A stretch of DNA of 10,773 bases from a virus (Duplodnaviria; Heunggongvirae; Uroviricota; Caudoviricetes): the IMG/VR virus record IMGVR_UViG_2681813269_000008, one strand, 5' to 3'. The translations under genes were made by a program, and so were the position numbers. The notes beneath the pieces were generated by a model. It was given only the letters and a program-made list of their open reading frames with translations. It was not told the DNA's origin and did no database searches. Below are positions 469 to 10,773 of this stretch, in pieces; positions within the stretch are counted from its first letter, which is position 1; each line of letters begins with the position of its first letter.

Positions 469-502
469 ATCCCGCCCCCCGACAGACCTGTGCTATCGGA
501 AA

Positions 503-534
503 GAAAAAAGGCCATCAGCAAAACTCTGATGGCC
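503..534 (-). terminator. Predicted rho-independent terminator (minus strand) just upstream of the holin gene
   Basis: Perfect 9-bp stem GGCCATCAG (510-518) / CTGATGGCC (526-534) with a 7-nt loop. On the minus strand the hairpin is followed by a U-run (complement of GAAAAAA at 503-509). Confidence 0.5.
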
Positions 535-579
535 TGAATCACCTTTACCAATATTGTATGAAAAAACACGCACGACTAA

Positions 580-608
580 TTGACAATAATTTTCATTTCC
601 ATTAAAAA
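580..608 (+). promoter_or_regulatory. Candidate sigma70 promoter on the plus strand (TTGACA, 17-nt spacer, TAAAAA)
   Basis: Consensus -35 TTGACA at 580-585, a 17-nt spacer, and a weak -10 TAAAAA at 603-608 in an AT-rich context. It points toward the terminator hairpin at 644-710. Prediction only. Confidence 0.25.
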
Positions 609-643
609 AGATCGCGTAGCATTCTTAATTCATGAGGAACTTT

Positions 644-710
644 ACCCGCCAGCAATCTGAGTAGCGAAAGCTGTTCATCCCCAATGTTTTTGCTGGCGGG
701 TCCTTTTTTC
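644..710 (+). terminator. Long-stem hairpin plus T-run; intrinsic terminator and/or 3' end of a candidate small RNA (plus strand)
   Basis: Perfect 11-bp arms CCCGCCAGCAA (645-655) / TTGCTGGCGGG (690-700) enclose a 34-nt loop with a possible internal GAAA tetraloop stem, followed by TTTTTT (704-709). A second weaker hairpin and T-run lies at about 722-757. Confidence 0.45.
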
Positions 711-1148
711 TACGGTCCTCCTCCCCGGAGGGGGGCATTTCATTATTTTTCTAATCGTTACTGGTGAGAAGGCGGAAGAAAAAGCCAGTTCTTCGCCCCT
801 AAATAACAGCATGATTCCAGTCCATGCAAAATCTGATTTCCAGCTCACACATACCGAGCGCTGTACAAAAAACCGCCAGCCAAGGCAGTTAAGAGTGTGT
901 TCCCGGGGTTTGCTTAGAATATTTTGTAAGTTGTCCGAAGAGATATTTACAACACCAGAATGATGAATCATCAGTCCCCTGCCAGAGGTTCACTACGTAA
1001 CCTGACCGACAATGCACCATTCTGGTGCTGAAAAAAGAGCACTGGAACTGCAACAAAACAACATCACAGAACAGGAGATGGTAAGGAGTCAGACATTCCC
1101 ACACAATATTGTGTCAGTGCAAATAACAACCTTCGTCTCAAATCTCGC

Positions 1149-1223
<75 letters not shown>

Positions 1224-1226
1224 ATA

Positions 1227-1302
<76 letters not shown>

Positions 1303-1304
1303 GC

Positions 1305-1381
1305 TGGCCCACCACCGAGGACTCGAACCTCGCACCGTCAACTTAGAAGGTTGATGCTCTATCCGGATGAGCTAGTGGTGG
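1305..1381 (-). tRNA. tRNA-Arg (anticodon TCT)
   Basis: Minus-strand CCACCACTAGCTCATCCGGATAGAGCATCAACCTTCTAAGTTGACGGTGCGAGGTTCGAGTCCTCGGTGGTGGGCCA. Acceptor stem CCACCAC/GTGGTGG, anticodon stem TCAAC/GTTGA, loop CTTCTAA, encoded CCA. Confidence 0.88.
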
Positions 1382-1382
1382 T

Positions 1383-1459
1383 TGGTGGCCCTTGCTGGAC
1401 TTGAACCAGCGACCTGGCGATTATGAGTCGCTCGCTCTGACCAACTGAGCTAAAGGGCC
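1383..1459 (-). tRNA. tRNA with CAT anticodon, most likely tRNA-Ile2 (lysidine-modified), ileX/ileZ-like
   Basis: Minus-strand GGCCCTTTAGCTCAGTTGGTCAGAGCGAGCGACTCATAATCGCCAGGTCGCTGGTTCAAGTCCAGCAAGGGCCACCA. Anticodon loop CTCATAA. The body resembles E. coli tRNA-Ile2 rather than initiator or elongator tRNA-Met, as I recall them. Confidence 0.85.
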
Positions 1460-1547
1460 GGAGGCAGAATAATAACCATATGTCATCACATCTGCAAACT
1501 CATCTGACCACCAGCACGTTTAACGTCCTGTGCCGTTTTTCAGGTAT

Positions 1548-1573
1548 AAAAAAACCCGCTCATCGGCGGGTTT
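1548..1573 (-). terminator. Predicted rho-independent terminator (minus strand) downstream of the ORF6N-like gene
   Basis: Stem CCCGC (1555-1559) / GCGGG (1566-1570) with a 6-nt loop. On the minus strand it is followed by a 7-U run (complement of the A-run at 1548-1554). Confidence 0.6.
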
Positions 1574-1648
1574 AAGCTGTGTGGCGTAGTAACCACTCTT
1601 AACAGGATATTCAACTTTTTACGATCGTAAAGTTTTCGGAAAAAATTT

Positions 1649-2218
1649 TTAAAACCGCATCAACCGCTCCACCAGTTGCTCTTTACGGGCAACGATCCAC
1701 CCGTGTTGCTCCAGATAAAATTTAAACCGTTCCAGAGTACATACCATCGCATCGGCGGGTACCTTTTCCGTGAACTCAACCTGACCGTGTTTATCGAAGT
1801 GGCTCAGTAATGCGCATCCATCATTTTCGATAGATGTGTTTTGTGCCGCTGGTGGCTGTTTCTGGTTGAAATAACAGTCTTCCAGTTTTTCGAACACTTC
1901 CCACGCCTGATCGGTTTCGAGCATTTTGGCGTGACGGGCTGCGCCACGTTCTGTCCAGAGGATGAGGGAGCGAACGTTACGGGCAATTTTCACAGAAACT
2001 CTTAAAGAGTTTTCGTTCTTCAACTCTCGTAACGCATCACCTTCTATCAGGAAAAAATGTTTACCTTCTATAAACCGTTCTTTGTTTCGATTGAAATTGT
2101 TTGTCAAACGCTGGCGCTCTGTTCCGTACAAATCAGCCAGCAGCTCTGTTGTCATGACAGGAAGATGGTTATGCGTAAGTGACGGGAGTTTTTCAATAGA
2201 CGTGCGATTCATAGACAT
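1649..2218 (-). CDS. ORF6N/KilA-N-like phage DNA-binding (antirepressor-like) protein; start uncertain
   Basis: The open frame runs 1649-2410 (253 aa). The conserved region starts near MSMNRTSIEKLPSLTHNHLPVMTTELLADLYGTERQRLTNNFNRNKERFIEGKHFFLIEGDALRELK...WTERGAARHAKMLETDQAWEVFEKL, which resembles the ORF6N domain by recall. An AAAGGA Shine-Dalgarno sits before the ATG pair at 2218/2212. The 64-codon upstream extension has no protein-like character. Confidence 0.6.
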   Translation of the reverse strand: MSMNRTSIEKLPSLTHNHLPVMTTELLADLYGTERQRLTNNFNRNKERFIEGKHFFLIEGDALRELKNENSLRVSVKIARNVRSLILWTERGAARHAKMLETDQAWEVFEKLEDCYFNQKQPPAAQNTSIENDGCALLSHFDKHGQVEFTEKVPADAMVCTLERFKFYLEQHGWIVARKEQLVERLMRF

Positions 2219-2573
2219 GTCCTTTCGAATATTTTGATTTACCCCTTTTGAGAGGGTGACCGGGCGCTCAAAACCGTCGAAAGTCGGCGGGCGTATTTCC
2301 ATTGCTGGTATTGTATTAGCCGCACACCCGGTCATAAACCAAGAATTCTGGACACAAAAAAACCACATGGCTATCGGGTGTGGATACCGCTTTCGAGGTG
2401 TTTTGAGCACCGCGGGGAAATGTAAACTGCAAACCTGAAACTGTCAACACCGTCAGGTTCCAATCATCGGGTGGTGAGACGCACAGGGTTGGAACTACCG
2501 GGAAACCGACCGGCGAGCTTTTCAGCTCCCCCATGCGCCCCACCATAATTCAGATGTGCGCGTGCATACGACA

Positions 2574-2597
2574 ATAAAAAACACGCTCGCGGCGTGT
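2574..2597 (-). terminator. tR'-like intrinsic terminator downstream of the late promoter (minus strand)
   Basis: Minus-strand ACACGC-CGCGA-GCGTGT hairpin (6-bp stem) followed by TTTTTTAT. It lies about 55-80 nt downstream of the predicted PR' start, as in lambdoid late leaders. Confidence 0.55.
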
Positions 2598-2658
2598 GTC
2601 TGTCGCGGTCTCTATCCGGGGTTCCAATCCCGACGCCAGATTTTGCTGGCGCGTGAGG

Positions 2659-2688
2659 AATATAGCCCCGGACAATGTGTCTGGTCAA
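2659..2688 (-). promoter_or_regulatory. PR'-like late promoter immediately downstream of Q
   Basis: Minus-strand TTGACC (-35, plus 2683-2688), 18-nt spacer, TATATT (-10, plus 2659-2664). It begins 5 bp after the Q stop codon, the canonical lambdoid position for PR'. Confidence 0.55.
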
Positions 2689-2692
2689 GCAC

Positions 2693-3079
2693 CTACATAA
2701 TTCGTTCTACGTATCTGTCCATCTCCAGCCGGATATCAAGCATCATCAACATGCCATCAATAACCCCTTCCGCTTTCTGCAGGCGCTTGCCAATACAGGT
2801 ATCCGAACACCCATGTTTCCGTGCCAGACTCATAAAAGTCATTCCACCTACGTAATAATCCACCAGCAAATCGTGCAAATCCTGATTTTTCTTGTTCAAC
2901 CGGGCCATACAGCCACAAATTATCATTGCATCATCATCAGAACACTGAGGGCGTGATTTCACTTTCGACGGAATTAACCCTTTAAAACCAGCAGCGATCG
3001 ACGCCCAGGATACATCTTCATGAGTGTTTGCAGCCCAAGCCCCCCACCGTTCCATAACCTGCTGAATATCACGCGCCAT
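2693..3079 (-). CDS. Late antiterminator Q (phage antitermination Q family, QuuD/phage 82-like)
   Basis: [121 protein letters not shown] closely resembles QuuD-type Q proteins as I recall them. The track ORF extends to 3100, but the ATG at 3079 has a good AGGTGA Shine-Dalgarno and overlaps the rusA stop. Confidence 0.85.
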
Positions 3080-3440
3080 CGTTATCACCTGTGATTTCAT
3101 AAATCTTCACGCCCAGTCGCCCACCAGGAACGAGCTGACCGCGCACAATATTGATTTCATCAAACTGCTCGTCGTCTATGAGTAGTCCGGCATGCGTCAG
3201 CGCATCCAGTGGTGCTTTCAGGATATTGTCCAGGTCACGACGGCGCTTATCCGGTGGCTCTGCAATAATCTTTATCGCCAGCCTTCCGGACAGGTTTAAT
3301 TTCAGCCGCTGCTGGCGAACAATTAGCGTCACATCACGGCGATAACGCTCACCAACTTTTGATACAAAATATGTGCTGCCACGACGTCGCCAGTAAGTAT
3401 TCACCGTCGGCGGATAAGGTAAAATAAACTCATGGCGCAT
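3069..3440 (-). CDS. rusA: Holliday junction resolvase RusA
   Basis: 123 aa: [21 protein letters not shown]...[31 protein letters not shown]...[11 protein letters not shown]. This matches the RusA hallmark motifs (PPS/TxN, DxRRRDLDN, D/E acidic cluster). The start overlaps the upstream stop (TGATG). Confidence 0.9.
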
Positions 3441-3697
3441 CAGCGCAGCACCTCCTGCACCATTTTTTCAAACTTTCCAACTTTGGTTTCCAGCTCTGCC
3501 ACACAATCAACGAGCTCATCCACCGCTTTTTGTGCGCGATGTTTCGCCTGCATCAGTTCCCTGAGCGCTGGCACCATATCCCGACGAATGGCATCTTTTG
3601 TTACACCTGTTTTTTCCAGTTGTTCCGCCTGTCGCAACATTTCCTGCGCGTGTTTACGCAATTGTTCAGAGGTAAAAGTCATTGTCTGGTTGTTCAA
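3440..3697 (-). CDS. Small hypothetical phage protein, predicted coiled-coil, unknown function
   Basis: 85-codon frame between the helicase and rusA. The 5'-most start is TTG, overlapping the helicase stop; an internal ATG lies at 3682. Charged, heptad-like sequence (EQLRKHAQEMLRQAEQLEK...). No family recognised. Confidence 0.5.
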   Translation of the reverse strand: MNNQTMTFTSEQLRKHAQEMLRQAEQLEKTGVTKDAIRRDMVPALRELMQAKHRAQKAVDELVDCVAELETKVGKFEKMVQEVLR

Positions 3698-5085
3698 AAG
3701 AAACGCTCCATCTTACTGCTGTCGGTACGTGTATTGCTGTATCTGCGCGGCTGGGGCTGCCGCATTGGGGTGGAAAGAACCTGTGCGCTTTCCTGGTCCA
3801 CAGGCAGAAAATGTCCGTTATAAAAACGCCGGTAAATCGTCCCCAGAGAACCGTTACGTTGTTTCGTGATATTAATTTCTGCTATGCCTGTAGCCTGTGT
3901 ATCCGGGTTGTACACTTCATCCCTGTAAAGCATCAGAATGATGTCTGCATCCGCCTCTATTTCTCCGGAATTTTTCAGGTCTGAGTTCATGGGACGTTTA
4001 TTGGGTCTGGACTCCACACCGCGGGAGAGCTGGCTCAGCGCAATCAACGGAAAACCACCGGATTTTGCCAGGCCTTTAAGCCCCTTTGAGATTTCACCCA
4101 CGGCAAGGTCATGACGCCCCGTGGTTCGGGTTTTTATCAGCCCGAGATAATCAACCACCACCAGCGCCGTTTCCGGATGTTTAATCAGATGGTGTTTCGT
4201 TGTTGCGCATATCTCATCAATGGTCAGGTTCGCCTGGTCCACCATCCAGATATTGCGCCCGGTCATCCGCCCCACCCCTTGTGAGAAACGCGCCCAGTCT
4301 TCATCTTCAAAGTGAGCCACAGATTTCAGGCGTGATACTGGCATCCCTCCAGCCGCAGACACCATACGTTCACCAATCTGGATGTTCGCCATCTCCATGG
4401 TGAACAGAAGCACACCATGCCCCTGCTCAGTCACCTTGTCGATGATGTCCAGCGCAAGTTCGGTTTTCCCCATCGAAGGACGGGCGGCAATGAATACCAG
4501 GTCTCCGGGCTCCATACCGCCTGTTTTTGCGTCCAGTTCATCAATACCGGTCATCAACGTCCTGGATTTCTCCAGCCCCTGATTCCGGCATTCAACACGC
4601 TCAACCACTTCCGGAAGCACATCATCAATATGTACCGGCTGAATGACGCCCTTTCCTGTCGACAGTGTGACCATCATGTTCTGCGCATCCTTCAGGGCAT
4701 CTTCAGCTGCTTCACAGGTATGCGCATCACGTAATTTCTGCAGCGCCTCATTCAGTGTTTTTTCTGCATCGCGCAGTGCGGCATTGCGCCGCAACGCTGC
4801 AACATAGTGCTCCAGTGAAGACTTCACCCAGGTTTTACGCCCGGTATCAGTAATCACCGGGGCAAGTTCCGGCATCTCATTACACAACAGCACGGGGTCA
4901 ATCACTCCTGAAACACGGGCCTGTCTGCAGATGCCTGTGTAGATATCCCGATACGCTCGTACAGAAAAAATGTCCGCCGGTAGTGTGATCAGAATATCCA
5001 TCACTTCATGATCTGCCCCACGCAGAAAGAATGCGCCAATGACAGCGCCTTCCAGGTCATCATTACGCCAGACTGGTGTTGTCAT
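3694..5085 (-). CDS. Phage replicative DNA helicase, DnaB family
   Basis: DnaB N-terminal-like region ([13 protein letters not shown]...) and RecA-like C-terminal domain with Walker [10 protein letters not shown], Walker B VVVDYLGL and [20 protein letters not shown]. The ATG at 5085 has a GAGGTG Shine-Dalgarno 9 nt upstream. The track ORF reaching 5145 begins at a GTG inside IS-derived sequence and is an artefactual extension. Confidence 0.9.
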
Positions 5086-5140
5086 GCAGCCACACCTCTG
5101 ATACAAGAACGGTAGCTGGGCCAGTTGAACGACAACCAGT

Positions 5141-5255
5141 ATCACTTAACCCATTACTGGCTTGCTGCCGTAGATATTCCCGTGGCGAGCGATAACCCAG
5201 TGCACTATGCGGATGCCATTCGTTATAATGCTCGAACGCCTCTGCAAGGTTCTTT
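5141..5255 (-). mobile_element. IS2-like internal fragment (3' end of the transposase gene) lacking the terminal inverted repeat
   Basis: The minus strand encodes ...[38 protein letters not shown], matching the C-terminus of the IS2 transposase as I recall it. The same sequence recurs at 10675-10773, where it is preceded by the 32-bp IS2-like terminus that is absent here. Confidence 0.6.
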
Positions 5256-5522
5256 AAAGCCGAAGCTGTCAGAACGGTTCTTGAAAATCAACTTTCGATC
5301 AGTGAAGGCGCTTCCCGATTATCTCTTCCTGAAGGCACTTTAGGACAATGGGTTACCGCCGCCAGAAAAGGGCTCGGTACTCCTGGTTCCCGCACGGTGG
5401 CTGAACTGGAATCTGAAATTCTGCAACTGCGTAAGGCGTTAAATGAAGCTCGCCTTGAGCGAGATATATTAAAAAAAGCAACAGCGTATTTTGCACAGGA
5501 GTCGCTGAAAAATACGCGTTAA
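5256..5522 (+). pseudogene. IS3-family orfA, N-terminally truncated (no start codon)
   Basis: Frame reads ...[89 protein letters not shown], a helix-turn-helix plus leucine-zipper OrfA. An in-frame TAA lies just upstream and there is no ATG. Confidence 0.7.
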
Positions 5523-5557
5523 TCGAACAATGGCGACAACAATTTCCCATTGAAGCG

Positions 5558-6376
5558 ATGTGTCAGGTATTTGGTGTATCCAGGAGCGGTTATTACAACT
5601 GGGTACAGCATGAACCCTCAGACAGAAAACAAAGTGATGAGCGGCTAAAACTGGAGATTAAGGTGGCACATATCCGCACTCGCGAAACATATGGAACCCG
5701 GCGGCTCCAGACGGAGCTGGCAGAGAATGGCATCATCGTTGGTCGTGACCGACTGGCACGTCTTCGTAAGGAGCTAAGGCTACGCTGTAAGCAGAAACGC
5801 AAGTTCAGAGCGACTACGAACTCGAACCACAATCTGCCAGTTGCGCCAAATCTGCTGAACCAGACGTTCGCTCCTACAGCACCAAATCAGGTCTGGGTGG
5901 CGGACCTGACGTATGTTGCCACACAGGAGGGATGGTTGTACCTCGCTGGCATCAAAGATGTTTATACGTGCGAAATTGTCGGCTACGCCATGGGAGAGCG
6001 CATGACAAAAGAGCTGACAGGTAAAGCCCTGTTTATGGCGCTCAGGAGCCAGCGCCCACCTGCCGGGCTAATCCACCACTCTGATCGAGGTTCACAGTAC
6101 TGCGCATACGATTACCGGGTCATACAGGAGCAGTCTGGTCTGAAAACATCAATGTCGCGTAAAGGTAACTGTTACGACAACGCTCCGATGGAAAGCTTCT
6201 GGGGAACGCTGAAAAATGAGAGCCTGAGCCACTATCGTTTTAATAACCGGGATGAAGCCATCTCAGTAATACGGGAATACATTGAGATTTTCTACAATCG
6301 TCAGCGTCGTCACTCTCGTCTGGGGAATATCTCCCCGGCAGCCTTCAGGGAAAAATATCATCAGATGGCTGCTTAA
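5558..6376 (+). CDS. IS3-family transposase OrfB (DDE integrase catalytic domain)
   Basis: 272 aa with the DDE triad context WVADLTY, HHSDRGSQY and CYDNAPMESFWGTLK. The frame is open from the slippery site at 5471, consistent with an OrfAB frameshift fusion. Because orfA is truncated, a functional fusion is unlikely. Confidence 0.85.
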   Translation: MCQVFGVSRSGYYNWVQHEPSDRKQSDERLKLEIKVAHIRTRETYGTRRLQTELAENGIIVGRDRLARLRKELRLRCKQKRKFRATTNSNHNLPVAPNLLNQTFAPTAPNQVWVADLTYVATQEGWLYLAGIKDVYTCEIVGYAMGERMTKELTGKALFMALRSQRPPAGLIHHSDRGSQYCAYDYRVIQEQSGLKTSMSRKGNCYDNAPMESFWGTLKNESLSHYRFNNRDEAISVIREYIEIFYNRQRRHSRLGNISPAAFREKYHQMAA

Positions 6377-6469
6377 AAAAAGAACAAATGGTAGTGTCCG
6401 CTATTGCCAGTACACCTCACACTCTATCCAACAAACCACCCACAGTTAATCGGAATAAAAGCAGAGTGC

Positions 6470-6595
6470 TTATGAATGATCGCACGCCCGAAGGTTAGTA
6501 TTTCTGCACAGCAATTTTGCAAAAAAAGGCGATCATTCATAACTTAAACGTCTTTCAGTCACTCCGGGATTTCCCATCATCGCAGACTGAAAGAC
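6470..6595. repeat. Two adjacent perfect inverted repeats (14-bp arms and 11-bp arms) in the copy-2 flank
   Basis: TTATGAATGATCGC (6470-6483) pairs with GCGATCATTCATAA (6529-6542) across a 45-nt spacer. GTCTTTCAGTC (6550-6560) pairs with GACTGAAAGAC (6585-6595) across a 24-nt spacer. The second ends 6 bp from the tRNA-Gly 3' end. Confidence 0.6.
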
Positions 6596-6601
6596 TCTGA
6601 C

Positions 6602-6676
<75 letters not shown>

Positions 6677-6679
6677 ATA

Positions 6680-6755
<76 letters not shown>

Positions 6756-6757
6756 GC

Positions 6758-6834
6758 TGGCCCACCACCGAGGACTCGAACCTCGCACCGTCAACTTAGA
6801 AGGTTGATGCTCTATCCGGATGAGCTAGTGGTGG
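6758..6834 (-). tRNA. tRNA-Arg (anticodon TCT), copy 2
   Basis: Identical to 1305-1381 (offset 5453). Confidence 0.88.
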
Positions 6835-6835
6835 T

Positions 6836-6912
6836 TGGTGGCCCTTGCTGGACTTGAACCAGCGACCTGGCGATTATGAGTCGCTCGCTCTGACCAACTG
6901 AGCTAAAGGGCC
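6836..6912 (-). tRNA. tRNA-Ile2-like (anticodon CAT), copy 2
   Basis: Identical to 1383-1459 (offset 5453). Confidence 0.85.
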
Positions 6913-7000
6913 GGAGGCAGAATAATAACCATATGTCATCACATCTGCAAACTCATCTGACCACCAGCACGTTTAACGTCCTGTGCCGTTTTTCAGGTAT

Positions 7001-7026
7001 AAAAAAACCCGCTCATCGGCGGGTTT
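7001..7026 (-). terminator. Predicted rho-independent terminator, copy 2
   Basis: Identical to 1548-1573 (offset 5453). Confidence 0.6.
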
Positions 7027-7101
7027 AAGCTGTGTGGCGTAGTAACCACTCTTAACAGGATATTCAACTTTTTACGATCGTAAAGTTTTCGGAAAAAATT
7101 T

Positions 7102-7671
7102 TTAAAACCGCATCAACCGCTCCACCAGTTGCTCTTTACGGGCAACGATCCACCCGTGTTGCTCCAGATAAAATTTAAACCGTTCCAGAGTACATACCAT
7201 CGCATCGGCGGGTACCTTTTCCGTGAACTCAACCTGACCGTGTTTATCGAAGTGGCTCAGTAATGCGCATCCATCATTTTCGATAGATGTGTTTTGTGCC
7301 GCTGGTGGCTGTTTCTGGTTGAAATAACAGTCTTCCAGTTTTTCGAACACTTCCCACGCCTGATCGGTTTCGAGCATTTTGGCGTGACGGGCTGCGCCAC
7401 GTTCTGTCCAGAGGATGAGGGAGCGAACGTTACGGGCAATTTTCACAGAAACTCTTAAAGAGTTTTCGTTCTTCAACTCTCGTAACGCATCACCTTCTAT
7501 CAGGAAAAAATGTTTACCTTCTATAAACCGTTCTTTGTTTCGATTGAAATTGTTTGTCAAACGCTGGCGCTCTGTTCCGTACAAATCAGCCAGCAGCTCT
7601 GTTGTCATGACAGGAAGATGGTTATGCGTAAGTGACGGGAGTTTTTCAATAGACGTGCGATTCATAGACAT
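7102..7671 (-). CDS. ORF6N/KilA-N-like phage DNA-binding (antirepressor-like) protein, copy 2
   Basis: Identical to 1649-2218; the track ORF 7102-7863 is the same extended frame. Confidence 0.6.
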   Translation of the reverse strand: MSMNRTSIEKLPSLTHNHLPVMTTELLADLYGTERQRLTNNFNRNKERFIEGKHFFLIEGDALRELKNENSLRVSVKIARNVRSLILWTERGAARHAKMLETDQAWEVFEKLEDCYFNQKQPPAAQNTSIENDGCALLSHFDKHGQVEFTEKVPADAMVCTLERFKFYLEQHGWIVARKEQLVERLMRF

Positions 7672-8026
7672 GTCCTTTCGAATATTTTGATTTACCCCTT
7701 TTGAGAGGGTGACCGGGCGCTCAAAACCGTCGAAAGTCGGCGGGCGTATTTCCATTGCTGGTATTGTATTAGCCGCACACCCGGTCATAAACCAAGAATT
7801 CTGGACACAAAAAAACCACATGGCTATCGGGTGTGGATACCGCTTTCGAGGTGTTTTGAGCACCGCGGGGAAATGTAAACTGCAAACCTGAAACTGTCAA
7901 CACCGTCAGGTTCCAATCATCGGGTGGTGAGACGCACAGGGTTGGAACTACCGGGAAACCGACCGGCGAGCTTTTCAGCTCCCCCATGCGCCCCACCATA
8001 ATTCAGATGTGCGCGTGCATACGACA

Positions 8027-8050
8027 ATAAAAAACACGCTCGCGGCGTGT
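8027..8050 (-). terminator. tR'-like intrinsic terminator, copy 2
   Basis: Identical to 2574-2597 (offset 5453). Confidence 0.55.
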
Positions 8051-8111
8051 GTCTGTCGCGGTCTCTATCCGGGGTTCCAATCCCGACGCCAGATTTTGCT
8101 GGCGCGTGAGG

Positions 8112-8141
8112 AATATAGCCCCGGACAATGTGTCTGGTCAA
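8112..8141 (-). promoter_or_regulatory. PR'-like late promoter, copy 2
   Basis: Identical to 2659-2688 (offset 5453). Confidence 0.55.
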
Positions 8142-8145
8142 GCAC

Positions 8146-8532
8146 CTACATAATTCGTTCTACGTATCTGTCCATCTCCAGCCGGATATCAAGCATCATC
8201 AACATGCCATCAATAACCCCTTCCGCTTTCTGCAGGCGCTTGCCAATACAGGTATCCGAACACCCATGTTTCCGTGCCAGACTCATAAAAGTCATTCCAC
8301 CTACGTAATAATCCACCAGCAAATCGTGCAAATCCTGATTTTTCTTGTTCAACCGGGCCATACAGCCACAAATTATCATTGCATCATCATCAGAACACTG
8401 AGGGCGTGATTTCACTTTCGACGGAATTAACCCTTTAAAACCAGCAGCGATCGACGCCCAGGATACATCTTCATGAGTGTTTGCAGCCCAAGCCCCCCAC
8501 CGTTCCATAACCTGCTGAATATCACGCGCCAT
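8146..8532 (-). CDS. Late antiterminator Q, copy 2
   Basis: Identical to 2693-3079; track ORF 8146-8553. Confidence 0.85.
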
Positions 8533-8893
8533 CGTTATCACCTGTGATTTCATAAATCTTCACGCCCAGTCGCCCACCAGGAACGAGCTGACCGCGCACA
8601 ATATTGATTTCATCAAACTGCTCGTCGTCTATGAGTAGTCCGGCATGCGTCAGCGCATCCAGTGGTGCTTTCAGGATATTGTCCAGGTCACGACGGCGCT
8701 TATCCGGTGGCTCTGCAATAATCTTTATCGCCAGCCTTCCGGACAGGTTTAATTTCAGCCGCTGCTGGCGAACAATTAGCGTCACATCACGGCGATAACG
8801 CTCACCAACTTTTGATACAAAATATGTGCTGCCACGACGTCGCCAGTAAGTATTCACCGTCGGCGGATAAGGTAAAATAAACTCATGGCGCAT
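8522..8893 (-). CDS. rusA: Holliday junction resolvase RusA, copy 2
   Basis: Identical to 3069-3440. Confidence 0.9.
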
Positions 8894-9150
8894 CAGCGCA
8901 GCACCTCCTGCACCATTTTTTCAAACTTTCCAACTTTGGTTTCCAGCTCTGCCACACAATCAACGAGCTCATCCACCGCTTTTTGTGCGCGATGTTTCGC
9001 CTGCATCAGTTCCCTGAGCGCTGGCACCATATCCCGACGAATGGCATCTTTTGTTACACCTGTTTTTTCCAGTTGTTCCGCCTGTCGCAACATTTCCTGC
9101 GCGTGTTTACGCAATTGTTCAGAGGTAAAAGTCATTGTCTGGTTGTTCAA
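8893..9150 (-). CDS. Small hypothetical coiled-coil phage protein, copy 2
   Basis: Identical to 3440-3697. Confidence 0.5.
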   Translation of the reverse strand: MNNQTMTFTSEQLRKHAQEMLRQAEQLEKTGVTKDAIRRDMVPALRELMQAKHRAQKAVDELVDCVAELETKVGKFEKMVQEVLR

Positions 9151-10538
9151 AAGAAACGCTCCATCTTACTGCTGTCGGTACGTGTATTGCTGTATCTGCG
9201 CGGCTGGGGCTGCCGCATTGGGGTGGAAAGAACCTGTGCGCTTTCCTGGTCCACAGGCAGAAAATGTCCGTTATAAAAACGCCGGTAAATCGTCCCCAGA
9301 GAACCGTTACGTTGTTTCGTGATATTAATTTCTGCTATGCCTGTAGCCTGTGTATCCGGGTTGTACACTTCATCCCTGTAAAGCATCAGAATGATGTCTG
9401 CATCCGCCTCTATTTCTCCGGAATTTTTCAGGTCTGAGTTCATGGGACGTTTATTGGGTCTGGACTCCACACCGCGGGAGAGCTGGCTCAGCGCAATCAA
9501 CGGAAAACCACCGGATTTTGCCAGGCCTTTAAGCCCCTTTGAGATTTCACCCACGGCAAGGTCATGACGCCCCGTGGTTCGGGTTTTTATCAGCCCGAGA
9601 TAATCAACCACCACCAGCGCCGTTTCCGGATGTTTAATCAGATGGTGTTTCGTTGTTGCGCATATCTCATCAATGGTCAGGTTCGCCTGGTCCACCATCC
9701 AGATATTGCGCCCGGTCATCCGCCCCACCCCTTGTGAGAAACGCGCCCAGTCTTCATCTTCAAAGTGAGCCACAGATTTCAGGCGTGATACTGGCATCCC
9801 TCCAGCCGCAGACACCATACGTTCACCAATCTGGATGTTCGCCATCTCCATGGTGAACAGAAGCACACCATGCCCCTGCTCAGTCACCTTGTCGATGATG
9901 TCCAGCGCAAGTTCGGTTTTCCCCATCGAAGGACGGGCGGCAATGAATACCAGGTCTCCGGGCTCCATACCGCCTGTTTTTGCGTCCAGTTCATCAATAC
10001 CGGTCATCAACGTCCTGGATTTCTCCAGCCCCTGATTCCGGCATTCAACACGCTCAACCACTTCCGGAAGCACATCATCAATATGTACCGGCTGAATGAC
10101 GCCCTTTCCTGTCGACAGTGTGACCATCATGTTCTGCGCATCCTTCAGGGCATCTTCAGCTGCTTCACAGGTATGCGCATCACGTAATTTCTGCAGCGCC
10201 TCATTCAGTGTTTTTTCTGCATCGCGCAGTGCGGCATTGCGCCGCAACGCTGCAACATAGTGCTCCAGTGAAGACTTCACCCAGGTTTTACGCCCGGTAT
10301 CAGTAATCACCGGGGCAAGTTCCGGCATCTCATTACACAACAGCACGGGGTCAATCACTCCTGAAACACGGGCCTGTCTGCAGATGCCTGTGTAGATATC
10401 CCGATACGCTCGTACAGAAAAAATGTCCGCCGGTAGTGTGATCAGAATATCCATCACTTCATGATCTGCCCCACGCAGAAAGAATGCGCCAATGACAGCG
10501 CCTTCCAGGTCATCATTACGCCAGACTGGTGTTGTCAT
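9147..10538 (-). CDS. Phage replicative DNA helicase, DnaB family, copy 2
   Basis: Identical to 3694-5085. The 510-aa track ORF (to 10679) is an artefactual in-frame extension across 49 bp of flank and the IS2-like terminus. Confidence 0.9.
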   Translation of the reverse strand: MTTPVWRNDDLEGAVIGAFFLRGADHEVMDILITLPADIFSVRAYRDIYTGICRQARVSGVIDPVLLCNEMPELAPVITDTGRKTWVKSSLEHYVAALRRNAALRDAEKTLNEALQKLRDAHTCEAAEDALKDAQNMMVTLSTGKGVIQPVHIDDVLPEVVERVECRNQGLEKSRTLMTGIDELDAKTGGMEPGDLVFIAARPSMGKTELALDIIDKVTEQGHGVLLFTMEMANIQIGERMVSAAGGMPVSRLKSVAHFEDEDWARFSQGVGRMTGRNIWMVDQANLTIDEICATTKHHLIKHPETALVVVDYLGLIKTRTTGRHDLAVGEISKGLKGLAKSGGFPLIALSQLSRGVESRPNKRPMNSDLKNSGEIEADADIILMLYRDEVYNPDTQATGIAEINITKQRNGSLGTIYRRFYNGHFLPVDQESAQVLSTPMRQPQPRRYSNTRTDSSKMERFF

Positions 10539-10642
10539 GCAGCCACACCTCTGATACAAGAACGGTAGCTGGGCCAGTTGAACGACAACCAGTTGCGCCC
10601 CCCGTCTGTGATCCTGTCGGCAATGCGGGGGCTGATGAACGC
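10535..10642 (-). pseudogene. 3' remnant of the gene upstream of the helicase (probable replication initiator or helicase loader), cut by the IS2-like insertion
   Basis: Minus-strand frame ...[35 protein letters not shown] ends in a TGA that overlaps the helicase ATG (ATGA coupling). The frame is open right up to the IS2-like terminus at 10643. No family assignment is possible from 35 codons. Confidence 0.35.
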
Positions 10643-10773
10643 TGGATTTGCCCCTATATTTCCAGACACCTGTTATCACTTAACCCATTACTGGCTTGCT
10701 GCCGTAGATATTCCCGTGGCGAGCGATAACCCAGTGCACTATGCGGATGCCATTCGTTATAATGCTCGAACGC
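10643..10773 (-). mobile_element. IS2-like element, right terminus and 3' end of the transposase gene; runs off the window end
   Basis: TGGATTTGCCCCTATATTTCCAGACACCTGTTATCACTTAACCCATTAC... matches the reverse complement of the IS2 right inverted repeat as I recall it, with about one mismatch. The minus strand encodes the transposase C-terminus ...[10 protein letters not shown]. Confidence 0.6.

Follow-up and report, generated by a model that had tools for sequence, protein, structure and literature searches.

PasA (85 nt) and PasC (79 nt), two small RNAs (sRNAs) of enteropathogenic Escherichia coli (EPEC) strain E2348/69, have been documented by Northern blot, by Hfq dependence and by ligation and sequencing of interacting RNAs (RIL-seq; Pearl Mizrahi et al., PMC8550237, Table S6), and the coordinates reported place both genes antisense to the late operon, between a nanS-p esterase gene and the holin gene (PMC8550237). 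PasA extends from 743499 to 743415 on the minus strand, with the holin gene at 743713 on the plus strand, and PasC, likewise on the minus strand, follows an esterase gene on the plus strand. The order esterase-PasA-holin-lysozyme, a 3' stem-loop with poly-U and a divergent 5' part next to a conserved 3' end have been described by Zhu et al. (bioRxiv 2026); the homologues of PasA and PasC in enterohaemorrhagic E. coli (EHEC) are EcOnc51/52. The DNA examined here, 10,773 nt of IMG/VR virus record IMGVR_UViG_2681813269_000008 (Caudoviricetes; hereafter the window), corresponds to the late region of a lambdoid prophage, reading on the minus strand, and the element in question occupies positions 580-709 of the plus strand, within the interval 469-1147 that separates a tRNA operon from the gene for an S21-type holin. 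On balance, this element is probably an sRNA gene of the PasA/PasC kind, forming a gene-less "moron" between the tRNA operon and the holin gene; as judged from its sequence, it is most likely a real transcription unit and an undescribed allele of the PasA/PasC locus.

Convergent pairs of sRNAs have also been reported from the moron site downstream of PR' in EHEC prophages (Tree et al. 2014, PMC4104026), and in the sRNAs AsxR and AgvB, 51-60 nt in length, some 42 nt on the 3' side are conserved whereas 14-18 nt on the 5' side vary (PMC4104026). Through prophage sRNAs, AsxR, AgvB and the Pas RNAs among them, virulence genes borne by phages are tied to the regulation of the host, and the catalogue of such sRNAs rests on few strains and on BLAST-level similarity. 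The window unit would extend the PasA/PasC locus to a type beyond the reach of BLAST.

The plus-strand unit at 580-709

In position and layout the window unit corresponds closely to the Pas genes. Both lie antisense to the late operon and just upstream of the holin gene (580-709 on the plus strand and 468-253 on the minus strand, respectively, in the window), both have a TTGACA -35 hexamer, a 17-bp spacer and an A-rich, poor -10 hexamer, and both specify RNAs of about 80-95 nt, predicted in the case of the window, that end in a stem-loop based on GCCAGC/GCTGGC and a poly-U tract. Similarly, the 5' part is variable and the 3' end conserved in each. The order of parts at the PasA locus, namely holin gene, sense-strand terminator, antisense TTGACA promoter, sRNA, terminator and second terminator, is also that of the window, and the second, downstream terminator of the PasA locus yields a longer minor form of the RNA. 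Validated RNAs are thus found at the same position and in the same orientation, in agreement with the initial annotation, made from the sequence alone, that prophage sRNAs are known from this kind of site. Similarity to the window unit was not found at the other prophage sRNA loci of E2348/69 (the PP6 and PP10 candidates), and PasB was rejected as a relative: its place is among phage structural genes, and plasmids hardly ever carry it.

Direct reading of the sequence identified a candidate sigma-70-type promoter at 580-608 (+), with TTGACA at 580-585, a 17-bp spacer and TAAAAA at 603-608, the consensus -35 and weak -10 noted in the initial annotation. The -35 hexamer is invariant in all lineages and neither hexamer is altered by substitution, the only variation being a 1-nt difference in the length of the A-run at the 3' edge of the -10. 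At the same site in the lineage of GF47, a related prophage, a promoter was called by the consensus scan (TTGACA-18-AAAAAT, 10 of 12 matches). Upstream of the promoter, a conserved spacer (536-579, +) contains an A-tract at 561-566 and the sequence TGAATCACCTTTACCA..TGTATGAA, which is near-invariant even when a Shiga toxin (Stx) 1d prophage is included in the alignment; the spacer is a possible UP element.

The predicted RNA, designated type W, would extend over about 95 nt (614-709, +), with a start deduced from the position of the -10 and an end deduced from a hairpin and U-run, and would consist of a variable, single-stranded 5' part of about 30 nt followed by the terminator hairpin and U6. 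The hairpin (644-709, +) has a 12-bp stem, A644-A655/U690-U701, closing a 34-nt loop (656-689), and is followed by CC and T6 (704-709); the perfect 11-bp stem first described corresponds to 645-655/690-700. Minimum free energy for 640-712 was -28.8 kcal/mol (z = -5.8), and none of 200 shuffled sequences folded as well. A G+C-rich hairpin followed by a U-run on the transcribed strand, the hallmark of intrinsic termination, is therefore present in 644-709, with the qualifications that CC precedes the U6 here (UUCUUUUUU in other lineages) and that a 34-nt loop exceeds the range of the simple terminator scan used. Conserved within the loop are the motifs GTAG and GTTCATCCC. The loop was initially described as structured, and an inner helix (658-665/670-677, capped by GAAA and containing two G.U pairs) does form, on the plus strand only; this helix was rejected as a family feature because it is lost in a fifth window-type lineage (L279) and in the unit type T2 described below.

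A second hairpin and T-run, originally placed at about 722-757, is also present but weak. Its stem lies at 715-736 (+), T5 (752-756) begins 15 nt past the stem, z is -1.7, and the folding energy, -15.5 kcal/mol in the window, ranges from -4.8 to -11.1 kcal/mol elsewhere among the lineages. As a terminator this hairpin would be weak at best, possibly a back-up. All features first described were thus confirmed, some of them with coordinates moved by one or a few bases. The proposal of a short, terminated plus-strand transcript stands in part: an RNA of about 95 nt agrees with all that was computed and is strongly supported by the Pas precedent, and the modules shared with other units speak for it, but the poor -10 and weak second terminator do not. 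No Rfam model matched inside the interval, either at gathering score in a cmscan of the whole window or at E values up to 10 over 380-1200, a result that is uninformative, because Rfam holds no PasA/PasC model.

Conservation within the unit is uneven. Among four lineages aligned over the block 500-849, variable sites numbered 5 of 59 in the hairpin region (643-701) as compared with 75 of 291 in the rest of the block, so that the expected conservation of the hairpin among relatives was observed. Variation was greatest in the 30 nt that separate the hairpin from the predicted start (10 of 30 sites).

The interval has a mosaic build, its modules meeting at sharp junctions near 485, 597, 849 and 943. 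Positions 381-597 are shared with the Stx1d prophage of strain RM8082, and since stx1 lies directly upstream of the shared segment in that prophage, the designation of the interval as a moron/toxin position was correct. Positions 500-849 are shared, at 85-88% identity, with a GF47-type prophage and with an Rz'-iss phage remnant that occurs on ColV-type plasmids and, beside pap and iuc, in an island of sequence type (ST) 131. RefSeq annotates nothing in the interval of E. coli CFSAN029787, which is 100% identical throughout, and in Shigella flexneri the identity is about 99%. Type-W blocks were detected in 1428 of 5426 complete E. coli genomes (roughly a quarter), including 639 places on plasmids, hundreds of them ColV-type, in contrast with Pas genes, which are almost never plasmid-borne (12 of 4,600 hits). 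The block 598-849 was absent from isolated phage genomes (50,697 records). In plasmid pEC9682-1 the unit stands beside the serum-resistance gene iss, a bor homologue, and fragments of Rz/Rz1 (L002, 4318-5344), and in the ST131 chromosome it stands in the island between the pap and iuc genes (L003, 4747-5348). Holin and lysozyme genes are deleted between Rz and the unit in such iss-linked copies.

Unit types T2 and T3

Two further types of unit appear, from shared sequence modules, to link the window unit to PasA and PasC. Type T2 was recovered by a pattern search with the stem of the window and lies antisense between a nanS-p-like esterase gene and a DUF1378 gene, which is the PasC position (L283, 8058-8190, +). 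It matches the window unit in its outer stem, in the TTTTACC before that stem and in the loop motifs TC and GTAG-N8-GTTCATCCC, and it matches PasA and PasC in the -10 and start region (GTAGAAAATGT versus GTCAGAAAATGT). Type T3 was found by position alone, with no pattern used, when the equivalent gap of the Stx2 prophage Sp5 of strain Sakai was fetched. It lies antisense in the 134-bp gap between a nanS-p remnant and a DUF1378 gene (L305, 6088-6210, -; 1272087-1272209, -, of Sakai NC_002695.2) and carries the promoter module of the window, TTGACAATAA-N10-CATTAAAAA, in the same orientation, with 19 of 19 specified bases identical and the same -10. Its terminator (CCGCCAGCG..CGCTGGCGG and U7, with the stem CCGCCAGC/GCTGGCGG) is close to that of PasC. 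The bodies between promoter and terminator in T2 and T3 are unrelated to that of the window, and both units adjoin the DUF1378 start codon, no sense-strand terminator intervening, whereas such a terminator precedes the holin gene in the window. T3 is present, unannotated, in 292 phage records, including that of 933W, and Min27 is also a carrier. Neither T2 nor T3 was found to be annotated or described in the literature searched, which included a paper on NanS-p flanking regions in which no RNA is mentioned.

The relationship was also examined by profile searches. A profile hidden Markov model built from PasA, PasC, T2 and T3, with window-type sequences left out, gave an end-to-end match to 578-701 (+) at E = 3.5e-7 (26 bits), a score that is partly circular, and to that extent counts against the interpretation, because T2 had been retrieved with the stem pattern of the window. 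The same profile matched the homologous sites of the iss plasmid and of GF47, and a profile of PasA, PasC and T2 found T3 at E = 7e-4. A covariance model of the window type (R1) retrieved its own family and, marginally, T2 (E = 0.02-0.05), with no match in the PasA and PasC loci.

In the terminators, the stem core GCCAGC/GCTGGC is shared by all types and is followed on the antisense strand by T6-T8 in every type, while the flanking pairs differ in a compensatory manner: position -3 is C-G, A-U or G-C, position -1 is C-G or A-U and position +1 is A-U or G-C. Covariation of the stem, proposed as a check in the initial annotation, was thus seen across unit types and was nearly absent among the closest relatives, which are too similar for covariation to be available within the window type. 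From these comparisons, the promoter and terminator of the unit are conserved modules and its body is exchangeable.

Rival readings and proposed role

Several results weigh against the interpretation of 580-709 as a Pas-type sRNA gene. The -10 lacks T at -7, and for this reason a consensus scan for sigma-70 promoters (near-consensus hexamers 16-18 bp apart, with A at -11 and T at -7) calls no promoter in the window lineage. PasA and PasC gave no blastn match to the unit, and a blastn match is the criterion applied by Zhu et al.; in local alignments the observed scores were reached by 87 of 1000 shuffled sequences for PasA and by 8 of 1000 for PasC, similarity that is not significant. An nhmmer profile of PasA and PasC only gave no match to the window, and profiles free of selection bias reached only E = 0.01-0.5, although colinear with the unit at the right site and on the right strand. 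Values for individual profiles were 0.49 for PasA, PasC and T3 against the window, 0.059 for the same profile against the GF47 copy and 0.01 to 0.47 for T3 alone. No peak from Hfq crosslinking and analysis of cDNA (CRAC) is listed at the T3 site of Sp5 in Table S2 of Tree et al., and the hairpin sequence had no match in a full-text literature search. Within the window type, 18 of 20 pairs never vary, the remaining two showing one G.U-compatible change and one plus-strand pair broken to A.C, and the 5' "seed" part of the RNA is conserved no better than background. The many iss-adjacent copies, finally, may be mere hitch-hikers with iss.

The interval 469-1147 has no credible coding frame, as stated in the initial annotation, and a decayed or unrecognised protein-coding sequence, an explanation already largely refuted, is so improbable that it need hardly be entertained. 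Open reading frames (ORFs) are short, the longest being of 98 amino acids (675-971, -) and 71 amino acids (889-1104, -), and together with those of 61, 53, 50 and 37 amino acids they had no Pfam or PHROG match. RefSeq does annotate short "hypothetical proteins" on homologous DNA (63 amino acids in GF47 and 96 in TUM1881), but these likewise had no match in either database, and homology searches gave no sign of decayed coding sequence in the interval. The 80 variable sites of the 500-849 block in four lineages were distributed 26/27/27 over the three codon phases, without periodicity, indels of 1, 2 and 4 nt were common, many indels were not multiples of three, and the ORFs span mosaic junctions and are not kept from lineage to lineage. 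Within the predicted sRNA, a ten-codon ORF (MRNFTRQQSE*, 632-664, +) has remained intact in four lineages. It lacks a Shine-Dalgarno sequence and most of its substitutions are non-synonymous, for which reasons it was rejected as a gene; it is probably a by-product of hairpin conservation. More serious, although still rather unlikely, is the explanation that the hexamers and plus-strand hairpins are leftovers of moron boundaries and any short RNA made from them functionless, their effect being at most to stop stray antisense transcription (e.g., from bor/iss-type genes against the lysis cassette) before the tRNA/Q region. The mosaic build of the interval, the weak -10, the unconserved 5' part and the lack of a reported Hfq peak at the related Sp5 unit are all consistent with this explanation, as are the occurrence of the hairpin downstream of iss, on the same strand, in ColV plasmids and GF47 and the density of terminators on both strands (8-9 as compared with 1.3-1.8 expected; over 240-1700, 8 terminator-like sites as compared with 1.8 +/- 1.4). 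In contrast, at least four types that otherwise differ have retained, at the same locus, the same promoter module and the same terminator module in one orientation, with some 60-80 nt between them, and two of those types, PasA and PasC, are abundant Hfq-dependent sRNAs. The loop motifs GTAG..GTTCATCCC are moreover conserved although a terminator needs neither, and no plus-strand gene in need of such a terminator lies downstream of the lysis cassette in the prophage type of the window.

Distinctly improbable is the explanation that the hairpin at 644-701 acts in the late minus-strand transcript, for example as an RNase III site or stabiliser of the lysis mRNA leader, with a coincidental plus-strand promoter and U-run. 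The outer stem folds equally well on the minus strand (-27.4 kcal/mol, z = -5.0), and the trailer RNA next to it, described below, demonstrates selection on sense-strand structure within the interval; on the other hand, a U-run follows the stem on the plus strand only, in every type, and the inner helix with its two G.U pairs forms on the plus strand only. Single substitutions point both ways, a G to A change in the stem of the iss plasmid giving G.U on the minus strand and an A.C mismatch on the plus strand, and the change in the L055 variant giving G.U on the plus strand and A.C on the minus strand. The conserved TTGACA-N17-TAAAAA at the right distance on the plus strand also argues for transcription in that direction.

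If 580-709 is an sRNA gene of the PasA/PasC kind, its sigma-70 promoter (TTGACA, 17 bp, TAAAAA) would start transcription near 614-616, the plus-strand RNA would run antisense to the Q-dependent late transcript, and transcription would end at the conserved 58-nt hairpin and U6 to give an RNA of some 95 nt, variable over the first 30 nt or so at its 5' end. The RNA would presumably be made in lysogens and associated with Hfq, and would act in trans on host or phage RNAs as an sRNA or anti-sRNA, as reported for PasA, PasC and AsxR; by analogy with those RNAs, its likely role is that of a trans-acting, Hfq-dependent sRNA or anti-sRNA produced by the lysogen. An effect in cis on the late leader is also possible, in that full complementarity to the leader, 150-240 nt upstream of the holin start, could trim the expression of lysis genes. 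The wider interest of the unit lies in promoter and terminator modules that are reused with different bodies, in two further unannotated types, one of them in the classic Stx2 phages 933W and Sp5, and in type W itself as a cheap, testable candidate regulator in extraintestinal pathogenic E. coli (ExPEC), avian pathogenic E. coli (APEC) and Shigella.

The tRNA-operon trailer, the late region and known convergent pairs

The remainder of the interval, taken in the initial annotation to be empty, is not so. A trailer of the tRNA operon with its terminator occupies 866-1148 (-), and a strong sense-strand intrinsic terminator (500-535, -; terminator scan and fold), with a stem at 535-509 and a U-rich tail TTTTTTCTTTC to about 498, lies 32-67 nt upstream of the holin start codon. 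The stem of this terminator before the holin gene has 10 pairs, 6 of them G-C, folds at -17.3 kcal/mol (z = -3.2) and is conserved in all five lineages aligned, and at the PasA locus, too, a sense terminator precedes the holin gene. From the known behaviour of Q-modified polymerase, the most plausible role of this terminator is to keep transcription not modified by Q out of the lysis genes.

The trailer extends for about 280 nt from the end of the tRNA-Gly gene. A structured RNA was predicted within it by RNAalifold (946-1121, -), with an imperfect hairpin of about 33 bp (1034-946) and a closing helix (1121-1111/1048-1038), and the consensus of 15 diverse homologues had an energy of -44.3 kcal/mol and 46 pairs. 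Paired cells made up 96.7% of the total as compared with 30-52% when the partners were slid, and ten pairs showed compensatory change as compared with 4.2 +/- 1.2 in shuffled alignments (none of 500 reached ten). The minus strand is the structured one: 112 cells are G.U, because of which the plus strand would pair in only 81.4% of cells, and a plus-strand structure for 938-1125 was rejected, having only 15 pairs at -8 kcal/mol. The trailer is followed by an intrinsic terminator (866-888, -; stem 888-873 and U6 872-867, by scan and fold) that is convergent with the antisense unit, and a sense-strand terminator follows the trailer in all homologues. Positions 864-1132 are common, at about 70% identity, to many lambdoid prophages, always just after a phage tRNA-Gly gene, and the trailer is carried by 233 complete genomes of E. 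coli and by over 100 contigs of IMG/VR. It had no Rfam match, with no tRNA match in 850-1148 at E values up to 10. A pseudo-tRNA reading of 946-1034, considered on account of a 74-nt-spaced inverted repeat (954-1027), was rejected, as ARAGORN at default and relaxed settings made no consistent call in 21 homologues.

In the sense of late transcription the gene order is DnaB, RusA, Q (2693-3100, -; PF06530), an RNA module resembling P1 c4 and IsrK, an ORF6N antirepressor-like gene, four tRNA genes, the interval, holin and lysozyme. The holin gene (253-468, -; PF04971, E = 1.5e-35), the first lysis gene and the one immediately downstream of the interval, encodes an S21-type (class II) holin and is annotated as a "class II holin family protein" in a 100%-identical E. 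coli copy. The tRNA genes, for Gly, Thr, Arg and Met(CAT) (1149-1459, -; ARAGORN and Rfam), are preceded by a promoter-like site, TTTGCA-18-TATTAT, at 1498-1469 (-; promoter scan). The last named (1383-1459, -) is tRNA-Met (CAT) according to ARAGORN and tRNA-Ile according to RefSeq for the same place in the cluster of a related prophage, which suggests a lysidine-type tRNA like ileX/ileZ, as in Stx phages. Rfam matches to isrK, C4 antisense RNA, c4-a1b1 and sRNA-Xcc1 at 2250-2665 and 7703-8118 (-) lie directly downstream of Q and upstream of the ORF6N gene, and the module is of the P1-c4/Gifsy-1 IsrK type, at the place where PR' is expected. A direct duplication of about 4.1 kb (1143-5239 and 6596-10773) comprises the tRNAs, the ORF6N gene, the RNA module, Q, RusA and DnaB. 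The copies are separated (5240-6595) by an IS600-type element with orfB at 5558-6376 (+), DnaB has 483 amino acids in the first copy and 510 in the second, and the native junction to the holin gene is kept in the first copy of the tRNA-DnaB segment only. The terminator after the ORF6N gene (1552-1573, -), with about 80 nt around it, is 88% identical to sequence upstream of essD in the K-12 prophage DLP12, which makes it a further mobile module of this kind. The nmpC promoter region that lies upstream of essD in DLP12 was rejected as a homologue of the interval, as matches were limited to the holin gene and an unrelated terminator.

The promoter-like site at 1498-1469, the tRNAs, the trailer and the terminator are a self-contained unit converging on the predicted antisense sRNA gene. 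A broader reading, which can be advanced only tentatively, is that the gap holds a convergent pair of unannotated RNA genes, the type-W antisense sRNA and the structured trailer RNA of about 280 nt. Type W, PasA, PasC, T2 and T3 would then be alleles of a modular sRNA locus at the entrance to the lysis cassette, with promoter, body and terminator modules shuffled such that each phage carried a different regulatory "payload", and the type-W allele, having moved with iss onto ColV plasmids and into the ST131 island, could take part in an ExPEC virulence regulon. The trailer is a separate candidate RNA family with real covariation support, and the less expected of the two items.

Spacer RNAs of tRNA operons include the 3' external transcribed spacer (3'ETS) of leuZ, a sponge RNA of E. 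coli, and stable "species 1/2" RNAs are encoded with the tRNA cluster of phage T4. By description, the trailer is like these RNAs in that a conserved, structured stretch other than tRNA is transcribed together with a tRNA cluster, up to the terminator of the operon. Its hairpin of about 33 bp, on the other hand, resembles an RNase III substrate more than a short spacer. The trailer could serve in processing or stability, or act as a regulator of the sponge type.

Compared with the Pas genes, the type-W unit differs in the terminator loop (34 nt as opposed to 17 nt in PasA and 14 nt in PasC) and in the upstream neighbour, which is the tRNA operon in the window as opposed to a nanS-p esterase gene. 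Differences from AsxR and AgvB are wider. The corresponding Rfam models (RF02703 and RF02702) had no match in the window, even at E values up to 10 over 380-1200; as positive control, AsxR was detected in Sp5, where the STnc100/AsxR pair was seen. The unusually short 51-60 nt of AsxR and AgvB contrast with the predicted 95 nt or so of the window RNA; the former lie between a moron coding sequence and the next ORF whereas the window unit adjoins the holin gene, and the sense-strand partner is the tRNA-operon trailer in the window as opposed to STnc100 for AsxR. Like AsxR and AgvB, however, the window unit is encoded downstream of PR' and antisense to the late transcript, converges with a sense-strand RNA that bears its own terminator, and combines a conserved 3' hairpin with a variable 5' end. 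Together, the tRNA-operon unit and the antisense unit match the "convergent pair" layout of the EHEC prophages.

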